IMG/VR virus record: IMGVR_UViG_2671180821_000007 | Source: a virus | Lineage: Duplodnaviria; Heunggongvirae; Uroviricota; Caudoviricetes | Direction: 5' to 3' (one strand) | Length of the DNA: 11,368 nucleotides | The notes under the pieces: model-generated | Told to the model about the DNA's origin: nothing | The model's input: only the letters and a program-made list of their open reading frames with translations | Database searches by the model: none | Made by a program: the position numbers and the translations under genes | Shown here: positions 385 through 3,016 of the stretch, piece by piece | Layout of the letters: each line of letters starts with the position of its first letter | Numbering within the stretch: the stretch's first letter is position 1

Positions 385-475
385 ACATGATGATGATGAC
401 GATAAAACCACAAAAATGCGCTTTTTTCCGCGCCGACCCGCCCCGTGGACAGGCCCCCCCCACCAGGAGGACCCG
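385..475. repeat. conserved intergenic element, copy A (GC-rich core about 423..473)
   Basis: Core TTTTTTCCGCGCCGACCCGCCCCGTGGACAGGCCCCCCCCACCAGGAGGACC matches 2938..2990 almost base for base. Flanking A/T-rich part (catgatgatgatgacgataaaacca) is also related to copy B (ggtggtgatggtgacataaaaatca). Confidence 0.7.
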
Positions 476-498
476 CAAAAAAGGCGGCTGCTGCCGCC
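476..498 (-). terminator. rho-independent terminator following the capsid gene
   Basis: On the minus strand: stem GGCGGC, loop AGCA, stem GCCGCC, then TTTTTTG (plus 476..482 is caaaaaa). Lies 7 nt after the capsid stop at 505. Confidence 0.7.
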
Positions 499-504
499 TT
501 GTTC

Positions 505-1269
505 TCATGAAGAAATCGCTCTGACCATTCCGCGATAATCCAGAGCAGCAACGCCAGCATCAATGCGGACCTTCCAGGCCACACCGTCAACAATAAAGCC
601 CTCCTGCTGCTCAAGGTAAGGCTCGTCATTACCGTCAAGATAAGCCACCTCAATTGTGTCCGTTCCCTGTGCTGAAAGCATGTACCATTGCTTATCACTG
701 ACTTCATCAAGGCGGGGATCGACAATAATATCCAGTTGTTTGTGGTACGGGTTATATGAACCACTGTTTGTATCGGCACCGAAAGGCGTGGTTGAGTTAA
801 CCATTTGCAACGCTCTGTCTTCCAGAGCCGCAGGAACAAGAAGGAATTTTGGCACAATATTCAGCACCTCACCGTTTTCATCCCTCTGTGTGCGCATTGC
901 ACGGCGTGCAATGCCAAGCCCTGTAGTGCTGACTCCGTTATCAATATCATTTCCGTGTTTTTTGCTGAACAGCGGTATACCGTCAGAAAGCTTTGTGTTT
1001 CCTGTCAGCACCAGATGAACCAGATTACCCACCGTTCTGGCGGCTGCTCGCCCCATTGCCTGTGGGATAACTGTTAACTGATTCAGGTCATCGTTAATAA
1101 TCGCCTGTCGGGTAATGCTGAAAATATTTCCGTAAGTTGCCAGCGCGATTGGTTCGCCACGGTCACTGGTGGTGATGTATTTATATTCCGCGCCTTCCGG
1201 CACTTTGTTTAATGTAGAGAAGCCATTCAGGCCAACACGACGTGCCTCATGGAAGTTTGACAATGAACC
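505..1269 (-). CDS. major capsid protein, C-terminal portion in the -1 frame relative to the upstream protease/scaffold ORF; no own ATG or convincing RBS
   Basis: 254-codon open frame (...SNFHEARRVGLNGFSTLNKVPEGAEYKY...AISS). The track start is a TTG at 1263; the frame is open from 1317. Placement directly after a ClpP-like prohead protease and scaffold-like region is typical of phage head modules. The fold assignment (probably HK97-like) is by context, not motif. Confidence 0.75.
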   Translation of the reverse strand, partial: GSLSNFHEARRVGLNGFSTLNKVPEGAEYKYITTSDRGEPIALATYGNIFSITRQAIINDDLNQLTVIPQAMGRAAARTVGNLVHLVLTGNTKLSDGIPLFSKKHGNDIDNGVSTTGLGIARRAMRTQRDENGEVLNIVPKFLLVPAALEDRALQMVNSTTPFGADTNSGSYNPYHKQLDIIVDPRLDEVSDKQWYMLSAQGTDTIEVAYLDGNDEPYLEQQEGFIVDGVAWKVRIDAGVAALDYRGMVRAISS

Positions 1270-2372
1270 TTTTTTCGTCCACTGGCGGAACGTTTCGCCG
1301 CTGTGTTCACGGATTTTTCAGCACCACCAGCAAGGATATAAGTAAAATCGCTGCTGCTGTGGGTGAATGCCGCGTTTACTATCTGCGAGCGTGTGCTGTA
1401 GCTGCCTGTGCTTATGCCGCGATGGGTTAATGATGCCTGTGCCATATCGAAAAGGCTCATCATGGCGTAAGGGTTGCCGCGTTCTGCCTGTTCATGTCCC
1501 AGACGCGCATTAAGCCCCTGACGCATTGCATCGCCGGTTATGTTGCCGTTATCCGTGTACGCGTAGTAAAGATTTGCGGGGGTGGTTTTGTTTGTCGGTG
1601 TCGATTCTTTACCCATAGTGAGTAAAAGGCGTTCGCGTGCATCCTCAACGCTACAGCCTGAATCAGCAAGACAACTTATAGCCAGGTCGTTATATCTTCC
1701 ATTGAACGTGCCAAACAATTCACGTATCCCGTTGAGTCGTTCCTGTTCTCCGCTGCCAGTTTTCTGGCTGATCATGCTTTTAATATTTTCCGGCATATTC
1801 GAAAAATCTCCGATTCGTTTTGATTCAATTCTGGCCATTGCTGTAATCGCGGGTATAACCTCATCTGCGAAGCCATTAGCCTTACACTCATTGCCATCCA
1901 TCCAGGTTTCCGCCTCCATCATGGCGGTGATTTCCTGTTTGCTCCTGCCCGTTCTTCCGGCGTAGGTTTCCGCCATCGTGTCGCCCAGCTTGTCCATCAG
2001 GTCAGCAAAGCGGCGAACGTCGCCCGACACTCCGGCAGTAACACCACGGGGGGCATGTATCATCATCATCGCGTTTTCAGGCATAACGATGTGATCGCCA
2101 CACATGGCAATAAACGAGGCCATAGAAGCCGCCATGCCTTCAATGTGTACAATTTTCTTTGCCGGATGATTTTTCAGGGCGTTATAGATAGCCAGCCCTT
2201 CAAAGATGTCGCCACCAGGTGAATGGATGCGAAGATGGATTTCAGGCACATTACCGCACGCGTTGATCTCGTCAGTAAGTGCCGATGCTTTTACACCGTA
2301 CCCGCCGATCTCGTCATAAATGCGTACATGTACAACATCAGCCATAGCCTTAATGGAAAACCATGTTTTCAT
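1227..2372 (-). CDS. ClpP-like (S14) prohead maturation protease fused to a scaffold/delta-like region and probably the N-terminal part of the capsid protein
   Basis: N-terminal 180 aa carry ClpP-type motifs (IHSPGGDIFEGLAIYNAL, GMAASMASF with candidate Ser, MMMIHAPRG with candidate His). Good SD (AGGAG, 7 nt) before ATG at 2372. ATGA start/stop overlap with the upstream 64-aa ORF. The frame ends 14 codons after an A AAA AAG heptamer at 1275..1269. Confidence 0.85.
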   Translation of the reverse strand: MKTWFSIKAMADVVHVRIYDEIGGYGVKASALTDEINACGNVPEIHLRIHSPGGDIFEGLAIYNALKNHPAKKIVHIEGMAASMASFIAMCGDHIVMPENAMMMIHAPRGVTAGVSGDVRRFADLMDKLGDTMAETYAGRTGRSKQEITAMMEAETWMDGNECKANGFADEVIPAITAMARIESKRIGDFSNMPENIKSMISQKTGSGEQERLNGIRELFGTFNGRYNDLAISCLADSGCSVEDARERLLLTMGKESTPTNKTTPANLYYAYTDNGNITGDAMRQGLNARLGHEQAERGNPYAMMSLFDMAQASLTHRGISTGSYSTRSQIVNAAFTHSSSDFTYILAGGAEKSVNTAAKRSASGRKKVHCQTSMRHVVLA

Positions 2373-2563
2373 AGCCAGGCTCCTAACGTTGCCCTGTACC
2401 AGTATTCAACCGCGCTTCTCGCAATCTGCCCTTTCGTGGGTACTGGCATTCCAGGGTGATGACTTTTAATGAACTGCTGATAGCGTTCGAGCTTCTCCAT
2501 AGTTCCGGCGTCTATGTGCACTGTTGCACTTTTATCCGGTTTTCTGCTGTTGTTCTCTGGCAT
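2369..2563 (-). CDS. hypothetical small protein (64 aa), first gene of the head module
   Basis: ATG at 2563 preceded by GGAGG with 7-nt spacer (MPENNSRKPDKSATVHIDAGTMEKLERYQQFIK...). Stop overlaps the protease start as ATGA. The longer track ORF from 2596 lacks an RBS. Confidence 0.6.
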   Translation of the reverse strand: MPENNSRKPDKSATVHIDAGTMEKLERYQQFIKSHHPGMPVPTKGQIARSAVEYWYRATLGAWL

Positions 2564-2760
2564 AAGTCTGCCTCCGTTATGATTAACGGGCATCATTATT
2601 GATCGATAAAACTGGTAAATAAATCATTTTCTATCTAAAAATCAGATTATGTGTTTTCTGATTTTTGTCATACCAGCAAAAGAATTGACTAATTATTGCC
2701 ACGCCAGCACAATTAAGACTCATCATTTCGGTAGTGGCAGTATCCTTTGTCGCTGACAAA

Positions 2761-2796
2761 GCGCCTCCGGTGGCACCATCGGGGCGCTTTTTTTTG
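2761..2796 (+). terminator. plus-strand rho-independent terminator in an intergenic region with no plus-strand gene
   Basis: GCGCC TCCGGTGGCACCATCGG GGCGC stem-loop followed by T9 (2788..2796), then a second GCGCC plus T6. On the minus strand the hairpin is followed only by TTTGTC. Confidence 0.55.
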
Positions 2797-2896
2797 CGCC
2801 TGTTTTTTGTAAATGCTTTCGGGAACGTTCCGGCGTCGAACAAAAAACAACCTAATTCGACACTAAAAATTTTTATTTTGCCATATATCAATAACT

Positions 2897-2990
2897 TAAA
2901 CTGGTGGTGATGGTGACATAAAAATCAAAAAATACGCCTTTTTCCGCGAACCGCCCGCCCCGTGGACAGGCCACCCCCACCAGGAGTACC
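2897..2990. repeat. conserved intergenic element, copy B (GC-rich core about 2938..2990)
   Basis: Core CTTTTTCCGCGAACCGCCCGCCCCGTGGACAGGCCACCCCCACCAGGAGTACC matches copy A; same orientation and same position relative to a downstream terminator hairpin. Confidence 0.7.
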
Positions 2991-2991
2991 T

Positions 2992-3016
2992 ACAAAAAAG
3001 CCGGATTGCTCCGGCT
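2992..3016 (-). terminator. rho-independent terminator following ssb
   Basis: Minus strand: stem AGCCGGA, loop GCAA, stem TCCGGCT, then TTTTTTG. Lies 16 nt after the SSB stop at 3032. Confidence 0.7.

Follow-up and report, generated by a model that had tools for sequence, protein, structure and literature searches.

The packaging of phage satellites at cos (cohesive-end) sites, where the terminase of a helper phage cuts DNA and begins to package it, has been described for several islands. The phage-inducible chromosomal island (PICI) EcCICFT073, located at 1377930-1388654 in CFT073, carries two cos sites, and a plasmid given either of them becomes transducible (Fillol-Salom et al., 2018, PMC6092414). 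Deletion of cos1 lowers its transfer, deletion of cos2 raises it and the double deletion abolishes it, and its concatemers are packaged past several cos sites (PMC6092414). Packaging of EcCICFT073 depends on the helper terminase, the island protein Rpp pairing with the helper small terminase subunit (TerS) to read the divergent cosB of the island (Fillol-Salom et al., 2019, PMC6739421). The helper-embedded PICI 11capE contains a capsid gene and a 258-bp stretch that is 90% identical to the helper cos region, and is presumed to be packaged by mimicking the helper cos in the absence of a terS gene of its own (PMC10111431). The cos-type staphylococcal islands SaPIbov5 and SaPIbov4 combine the cos site of the helper with Ccm, a homolog of the helper capsid protein (PMC5052747), and SaPIbov4 is reported to have two putative cos sites (cited in PMC6092414). 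Here, we describe an 11,368-nucleotide stretch of DNA, hereafter the window, from the IMG/VR virus record IMGVR_UViG_2671180821_000007, in which an island carries two copies (A and B) of a conserved intergenic element. The two elements are probably (at a rough probability of 85%) cos DNA-packaging sites of a Gram-negative PICI-type satellite, arranged in direct orientation on either side of a capsid cassette; this reading is favored because both copies are homologous to phage cos regions, share the motif layout of lambda, and carry a tract whose type is linked to a TerS domain type. The element is, as it stands, of an ordinary and already understood kind, and two cos sites in such islands are already known; what is new here, as judged from the sequence, is that each copy matches a different helper-phage packaging type.

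An earlier note on this DNA could not assign the element to any known kind, a view overtaken by the publication of two cos sites in EcCICFT073, an E. coli island with which it shares its backbone (PMC6092414). A literature search on the core sequence with cohesive ends matched no paper. The window island shares with EcCICFT073 the backbone of int, alpA, icd-like, DUF4222, primase, small open reading frame (ORF), ssb, late module and orf93, as well as the presence of two cos sites in the late module near orf93, each with helper-like cosQ and cosN. The EcCICFT073 cos sites carry the lambda end GGGCGGCGACCT at cosN, whereas that of the window island is of the GGGCGGG type. The EcCICFT073 cos sites are mutually inverted and flank rppA, while the window copies are direct repeats 2.5 kb apart flanking a protease/capsid cassette. 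Furthermore, no phage cosB resembles that of EcCICFT073, which is recognized by a heterodimer of Rpp and TerS, whereas the cosB regions of the window island are ~90% identical to phage cosB. The window island thus differs from the Rpp-dependent type represented by EcCICFT073 cos1 in having a phage-like cosB and no Rpp; homologs of Rpp, Nu1 and DUF1441 were found neither in the window nor in its intact relative, locus L001 (RppA having been searched for by tblastn). In 11capE, a single such stretch has been reported, the capsid is of the lambda E type and the island resides inside the helper prophage, while SaPIbov5 and SaPIbov4 are unrelated to the window island in sequence and host.

Homology of the two copies to phage cos regions

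The near-identical GC-rich cores that the earlier note had located at 423-473 and 2938-2990 were recovered by repeat search, blastn and profile alike. The repeat search paired 372-500 with 2889-3017, blastn of 247-520 against the window returned a match at 2905-3004 (83.3% over 102 nt, E 6e-24), and a profile built from both copies and four phage homologs gave two matches in the window only, namely the copies themselves (E 3e-47 and 2e-44). The cores, of 51 and 53 nt, respectively, align with 48 matches. The related sequence runs further than had been seen, extending ~150 nt downstream on the coding strand to TTTTTGTTCGAC and TTTACAAAAAA, which lie ~115 and ~148 nt downstream at equal spacing in both copies (TTTTTGTTCGAC-N21-TTTACAAAAAA). 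On the minus strand, each copy consists of the terminator hairpin and T-run of the upstream gene, cosQ, ~24 nt, ACG/GGGCGGG (cosN, the slash marking the nick), CGCGGAAAAA, and a CAT/CAC-rich tract, the latter corresponding to the GAT/GGT-rich tracts of the earlier note and present in both copies (Table 1). The intrinsic terminators that it had placed on the minus strand are also real, each being a hairpin followed by T6, directly after the stop codon of the upstream gene and directly upstream of cosQ and the core on the coding strand. The hairpin sequence of copy A is common neither to copy B nor to the phages, with the T-run alone being shared; since the hairpin sequences differ between the copies, they are to be seen as terminators of the capsid gene and of ssb and not as part of the repeat.

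In a comparison with GenBank phages, copy A shared 92.5% identity over 120 nt with Stx2_112808, a Stx2-converting phage, and also resembled VT1-Sakai. The homology of copy A begins at the T-run and reaches the start codon of the following gene, and positions 247-386 are homologous to the cosN-terS stretch of the Stx2_112808 and VT1-Sakai phages. For copy B, identity reached 89.7% with phage 1720a-02 over 116 nt and 88.7% with CP-1639, and weaker matches to mEp460, mEp213, mEp043, and Fels-1 were obtained with both copies. The matches in annotated phages all fall after the lysis gene Rz and before the gene of the small terminase, the position of cos in lambdoid phages. In prophages of other genera, the homologous sequence precedes terS, terL, and portal, at a distance of ~4.4 kb from the protease/capsid gene downstream. 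All loci examined are of two kinds, lambdoid prophages, with the element at the position of cos, and islands like that of the window. This homology bears out the remark of the earlier note that conservation goes well beyond the needs of a terminator, and the comparison with relatives that it had proposed showed the cores to be conserved in phages, prophages and islands, with no covariation among them. A generic enterobacterial intergenic repeat (REP/BIME/ERIC-like) unlinked to packaging would also be GC-rich, intergenic, near terminators and present, as the island cos sequence is, in hundreds of E. coli genomes, but the sequence occurs at no more than four places per genome, every examined locus is of one of the two kinds named above, and no Rfam family matches it, leaving this explanation with a negligible probability.

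The junction of lambda, made by joining both ends of the lambda record and then aligned, reads GATAATCATTATCACTTTAC-GGGTCCT-(23 nt)-ACG/GGGCGGCGACCT/CGCGGGTTTTCGC-TATTTATG, that of the Stx2 phage GATAACCATTATCATTTTTGC-GGGTCCT-(24 nt)-ACG GGGCGGGCGG CGCGGAAAAAGGCG-CATTTTTG, and that of copy A TTTTTTGC-GGGTCCT-(24 nt)-ACG GGGCGGGTCGG CGCGGAAAAAAGCG-CATTTTTG. The likeness to lambda is limited to the motifs, their order and their spacing, the family profile not detecting lambda as a whole. It comprises GGGTCCT 30-31 nt before the nick, ACG/GGGCGG over the left nick, CGCGG after the end, a specificity tract ~45-60 nt in, and a large terminase of the gpA family. Across the left nick, ACGGGGCGG in copy A is identical to lambda, and a Morganella prophage belonging to the family has CCACG GGGCGGCGACCT CACGGG, that is, the exact lambda 12-mer at the aligned position. 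The lambda segment TTTACGGGTCCTTCC, which contains GGGTCCT, is labelled cosQ in the supplement of PMC6092414, and of the 102 sites sampled in a phage context, ~100 have a cosQ starting with this motif's GGGTC. In copy B, the corresponding heptamer is AGGTACT. Prophages of Rahnella, Yersinia, Morganella, Edwardsiella and Pasteurellaceae normally have AGGTACT upstream of their cosN, and the cosQ of copy B is GGGTCCT in some relatives, as it is in the sampled E. coli-type phages. A view of AGGTACT as a damaged cosQ, allowing initiation and blocking termination of packaging, was dropped, this being the regular form in complete prophages of other genera.

The large terminase subunits (TerL) of the matching phages contain GpA_ATPase and GpA_nuclease (E 2e-82 and 9e-84), the two Pfam domains of lambda gpA, with which they share 24% identity over the full length. 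By analogy, the cos copies of the island would be cut by a gpA-family TerL of the helper. In comparison with lambda, whose cos is composed of cosQ, cosN, and a cosB with R3-I1-R2-R1, the small terminase is of the DUF1441 family instead of Nu1 (no similarity between the small terminase of the matching phages and Nu1 was detected), the tract is a run of CAT/CAC triplets instead of CGTTTCC, and the interior of cosN differs and varies in length. Together, the homology between Rz and terS and the lambda cosQ and cosN motifs at near-equal spacing support a packaging-related sequence, one of several options that the earlier note had listed.

The other options fared less well. A helper-activated late promoter or operator serving orf75-capsid and orf93, with the element acting mainly as a transcription signal, would account for the position of each copy upstream of a gene, for the equal TTTTTGTTCGAC-N21-TTTACAAAAAA spacing and for the terminator directly upstream, which leaves the downstream genes in need of a promoter or of read-through. 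However, the same sequence occupies the cos position of lambda in phages, the GC-rich core carries the cosQ and cosN motifs of lambda, and no sigma-70-like sequence turned up around the two copies when the coding strand was scanned with the consensus, which makes a mainly transcriptional role unlikely; a promoter within cosB, for which no support was found, would be compatible with a cos site. No support was found for an antitermination or processing signal. A structured RNA in the core, such as a put-like antitermination or processing element on transcripts passing the terminator, is more improbable still. The coding-strand folds are more stable than shuffled sequences (z -2.9 and -3.5) and pairing of the cosQ arm with the G-run after it is possible in some genera, but the stability comes mostly from the terminator hairpins and the G+C content, the folds predicted for both strands of both copies differ between copies, no Rfam 15 family matched in 1-3100 at E up to 1, and RNAalifold on 33 diverse homologs gave -2.9 kcal/mol with no compensatory changes. 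The candidate cosQ/G-run hairpin was 64% paired as opposed to 63.5% in shuffles, and a register slid by one scored better. The structured-RNA reading is regarded as weakly refuted.

Specificity tracts and small terminase domains

A scan of IMG/VR for CACGGGGCGGG-N3-5-CGCGGAAAAA gave, with the other loci, 138 sites. The tracts fall into six types, R-I (CGTCATCATCATCAT), R-II (GKCACCATCACCRCCA), R-III (TCGTCATCACCAC), R-IV (GGCGGCGGCAGCATG), R-V (CGGCCACCATCATC), and R-VI (TCGTCATCATCATCTT), and at the 94 sites where a TerS gene follows, each tract type goes with one type of TerS N-terminal domain. The first 62 residues of TerS share 0.90-1.00 identity within a tract type and 0.23-0.75 between types, whereas the last 80 residues group otherwise, with R-I joining R-II (0.94) and R-III joining R-V (0.98). 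In the sampled phage contigs, the R-I tract precedes the Stx2_112808-type N-terminal domain only and the R-II tract the 1720a-02-type domain only (98-100% identity). The TerS proteins of the phage types matching copies A and B are 77% identical overall, being identical over residues 85-158 and divergent over the N-terminal 60. Such a mosaic would be expected if a DNA-recognition domain had changed along with the site that it reads, and points indirectly to the CAT/CAC-rich tract as the probable recognition site of TerS. Copy A carries an R-I tract, at the position equivalent to R3, and copy B an R-II tract (Table 1); in lambda, the critical R3 site is found at +50 to +65 (PMC9026076). 

Further along the coding strand, an exact match to the consensus of integration host factor (IHF) directly follows the R-II tract of copy B and is also found in phage 1720a-02; it may be bound by IHF and could correspond to I1. 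Copy A has no exact match to this pattern, which, in its strict form, also misses the site of lambda itself. By analogy of position, TTTTTGTTCGAC and TTTACAAAAAA, which lie near the positions of lambda R2 and R1, may play an equivalent role.

The TerS of the R-I and R-II types are encoded in 402 and 227, respectively, of 5426 complete E. coli genomes, so that potential helpers are available. Carriers of the R-II TerS include E. coli ST130 (NZ_CP043478.1) and 2012C-4431 (NZ_CP024289.1), both of which also match island cos regions, and E. coli 042, the host of the published island EcCIO42, is among the matches to the copy B region. 

Possible use of the paired sites and a proposed packaging route

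The order ssb-cos(R-II)-orf75-capsid-cos(R-I)-orf93 was found at ten loci, and a second lineage of three loci has ssb-cos(R-IV)-capsid-cos(R-VI)-TerS homolog, followed by orf93 where the contig reaches it; the capsid genes of the two lineages are ~62% identical. A sister lineage (IMG/VR contigs L091, L104, L125, L176, and L184) encodes its own DUF1441-type TerS homolog, 53-56% identical to phage TerS, the gene lying directly after the capsid-distal cos (tract R-VI) and before orf93. Another locus, L103 (IMG/VR UViG 2690316346_000015), is nearly identical to the window island, with orf75 and ssb both 100% identical and the same tract sequences; ~3 kb past its orf93 lie the capsid, cos and TerS of another late module, belonging to a second island, of the R-VI/TerS lineage.

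If the island were packaged by analogy with lambda, it would excise after induction and replicate from its own primase and origin. The N-terminal domain of the TerS (DUF1441 family) of a lambdoid helper would bind the CAT/CAC-rich tract ~45-60 bp from cosN and position the gpA-family large subunit to nick cosN, and packaging would proceed from cosN through cosB into the downstream genes. Starting at copy A, orf93, att, and int onward would be packaged, and starting at copy B, orf75 and the capsid gene. Packaging would end at a later cos met with a filled head, where cosQ and cosN would direct the final cut; a cos met as early as 2.5 kb into packaging would be skipped, in the way that EcCICFT073 concatemers are packaged past several cos sites. 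Having no Rpp or TerS gene of its own, the island would rely on mimicking the cosB of the helper. As the tract of copy A is Stx2_112808/VT1-Sakai-like and that of copy B 1720a-02/CP-1639-like, each copy would be used by a different helper specificity class. The R-I and R-II terminase classes have the large subunit and the TerS C-terminal domain in common. It is tentatively proposed, from the tract sequences, that both copies are used by different helpers. That the differing pair is an adaptation, the R-I and R-II tracts allowing packaging by two classes of Stx-type lambdoid terminase, is likewise a possibility held at somewhat less than even odds.

The two copies may instead be cos sites by descent whose pairing has no function of its own, representing a scar left when the orf75-capsid cassette was captured or exchanged by recombination at cos, with one copy or neither in use. 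This account is about as plausible as the adaptive one, short of being probable. Both copies flank exactly the capsid cassette as direct repeats, and relatives with the same backbone but a single cos exist (ssb-cos-...-orf93 or ssb-cos-TerS-orf93). In islands of Kluyvera, Yersinia, Rahnella, Buttiauxella and Moellerella, the only cos is the one after the capsid gene, and the increase in EcCICFT073 transfer upon cos2 deletion (PMC6092414) agrees with a dispensable second site. On the other hand, cosQ, cosN, and tract motifs are intact in both copies and close to those of living phages, and the arrangement is kept in 13 loci of two lineages, all 13 pairing different tract types, although these loci are related and amount to at most two independent cases.

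Several observations weigh against the cos reading itself or against the use of these particular sites. The link between tract type and TerS type was drawn from related phages, so that the observations are not independent. The stretch from ACG/GGG to CGCGG varies between 10 and 12 nt among close relatives (including loci L087-L206), which is odd for a fixed 12-nt overhang; given this variable interior, the ends cannot be placed exactly. Among the phage and island records of the collections, none terminates at the predicted nick, those of the mEp460 type having their ends within cosB. For phage SfI, a 10-nt end, TGCCCGCCCC, was found experimentally (PMC3636060), and the complement of this end resembles the cos core. 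The window island is decayed, because an insertion sequence (IS) splits its primase gene and its capsid gene is frameshifted, and the sites may be out of use here. Finally, one of the two cos sites of EcCICFT073 is dispensable and its deletion raises transfer (PMC6092414), so both window copies need not be useful.

Gene content of the island and wider meaning

All genes of the window are on the minus strand, the integrase lying at the right end and the gene order running from there to the left (Table 1). By its gene content, the window island is a decayed phage satellite of the PICI type with the EcCICFT073 backbone, and displays the features of Gram-negative PICIs of the EcCI type, namely a size of ~10-11 kb, a terminal integrase, an AlpA-type regulator, a primase with an iteron origin, co-oriented core genes and the lack of lysis, tail and terminase genes. 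Its intact relative, L001 from E. coli RM10410, spans ~10.8 kb between mppA and pgrR and carries, in order, an integrase, a helix-turn-helix regulator, BRO-N, Icd-like, DUF4222, primase, small ORF, SSB, cos, small ORF, protease/capsid fusion, cos and a 93-residue ORF.

Table 1. Features of the window, in the order in which they are met on the coding strand (-, minus strand). Cos elements are assigned by homology; offsets take the first G of the aligned cohesive end as their starting point.
Feature	Position	Strand	Remarks
Integrase	10130-11368	-	right end of window; gene order then runs right to left
Excisionase/AlpA-like gene	after integrase	-	
Primase, split by IS	5537-7084 and 4000-4296	-	IS3-family element between pieces
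IS3-family element	4324-5480 (orfA 5178-5480, orfB 4324-5142)		within primase gene
Small ORF	between iteron region and ssb	-	
ssb	3032-3454	-	Pfam SSB; 72% identical to EcCICFT073 SSB; upstream of copy B
Intrinsic terminator of ssb	2994-3017	-	hairpin 3000-3015 + T6; -15.4 kcal/mol, z -5.1
cosQ, copy B, AGGTACT variant	2985-2991	-	same place relative to cosN as in copy A
Predicted cosN core, copy B, ACG/GGGCGGGCGGTT/CGCGG	2949-2960	-	then CGCGGAAAAAGGCG, as in phage homologs
Putative cosB tract, copy B, type R-II GTCACCATCACCACCA	2902-2917	-	+44 to +59
IHF consensus, exact match	2886-2898	-	TATCAATAACTTA on plus strand; directly after R-II tract, +63; possible I1 equivalent
Rest of phage-homologous copy B	2803-2885	-	TTTTTGTTCGAC 2835-2846 (+115), TTTACAAAAAA 2803-2813 (+148)
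orf75 (75 residues)	2369-2596	-	between copy B and capsid fusion
ClpP-like prohead protease/major capsid fusion	505-2372	-	Pfam CLP_protease + Phage_capsid_4; frameshifted
Intrinsic terminator of protease/capsid gene	477-500	-	hairpin 483-498 + T6 (477-482); -15.2 kcal/mol, z -4.2
cosQ, copy A, GGGTCCT	468-474	-	7/7 as lambda 48473-48479; 31 nt before aligned cosN start, 30 nt in lambda
Predicted cosN core, copy A, ACG/GGGCGGGTCGGC/GCGG	432-443	-	12-mer placed by alignment to lambda GGGCGGCGACCT; nick positions predicted
Putative cosB tract, copy A, type R-I CGTCATCATCATCAT	387-401	-	+43 to +57; R3-equivalent position
Rest of copy A cos region, to orf93 start	247-386	-	TTTTTGTTCGAC 317-328 (+116), TTTACAAAAAA 285-295 (+149)
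orf93 (93 residues), last island gene	1-246	-	C-terminal end beyond window edge; directly after copy A; PHROG 1561

The cassette flanked by the two cos copies (505-2596) consists of orf75 and the protease/capsid fusion. The latter is frameshifted at ~1263-1310, giving ORFs 1227-2372 and 505-1263, occurs in an intact form of 629 residues in L001, and is 52% identical in the window to the protease/capsid fusion of phage Stx2_112808. The gene context given in the earlier note was right as to ssb, the small ORF and the protease-capsid unit; the gene after copy A, taken there for a further head gene, encodes a 93-residue protein and is no recognizable head gene. Searches of Pfam and PDB gave no match for orf93 and were likewise uninformative for orf75, and no similarity was found between orf93 and the small gene of the same length downstream of the helper capsid gene. 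The intact L001 counterpart of orf93 is 77% identical to the last gene of EcCICFT073. Islands whose late modules differ widely, EcCICFT073 among them, have this gene conserved at one and the same end (9345-9626 in L001 and 33374-33655 in locus L209), where it always stands directly after a cos or a TerS gene.

The plus strand of 2685-2801 contains a promoter-like TTGACT-17-CACAAT followed by a hairpin (GCGCCTCCGGTGGCACCATCGGGGCGC) and T8, in antisense within the leader of 365 nt that separates cos copy B from orf75. Seven related islands, at ~85% identity, retain both the -35 element and the terminator, and the region may encode a small antisense RNA of ~75 nt; it has no match in Rfam. Just downstream of the primase gene, an iteron cluster at 3809-3985 made of direct and inverted GGTGAACAGT looks like the replication origin of the island. 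The sole Rfam hits in the scan of the whole window, to plant microRNA models at 3798-3911, are chance matches in this palindromic iteron region. A second transposase-like ORF is found at 9073-9576.

The assignment of these elements as cos sites provides a function for DNA that has so far had no annotation, or none beyond overlapping 'hypothetical protein' calls, and would define a cos family, with six specificity tracts, for lambdoid phages (Stx-converting phages included) that have a DUF1441-type small terminase. If the differing pair is truly an adaptation, it would give the island a wider helper range without a specificity factor of its own, and the same logic would apply to the second lineage, which combines R-IV and R-VI tracts with its own TerS. 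Should two helper classes truly be served, duplicate mimicry of cosB would be a means of widening the helper range, as opposed to the retargeting by Rpp in EcCICFT073, and the tract types would help to predict which Stx phages mobilize which islands.

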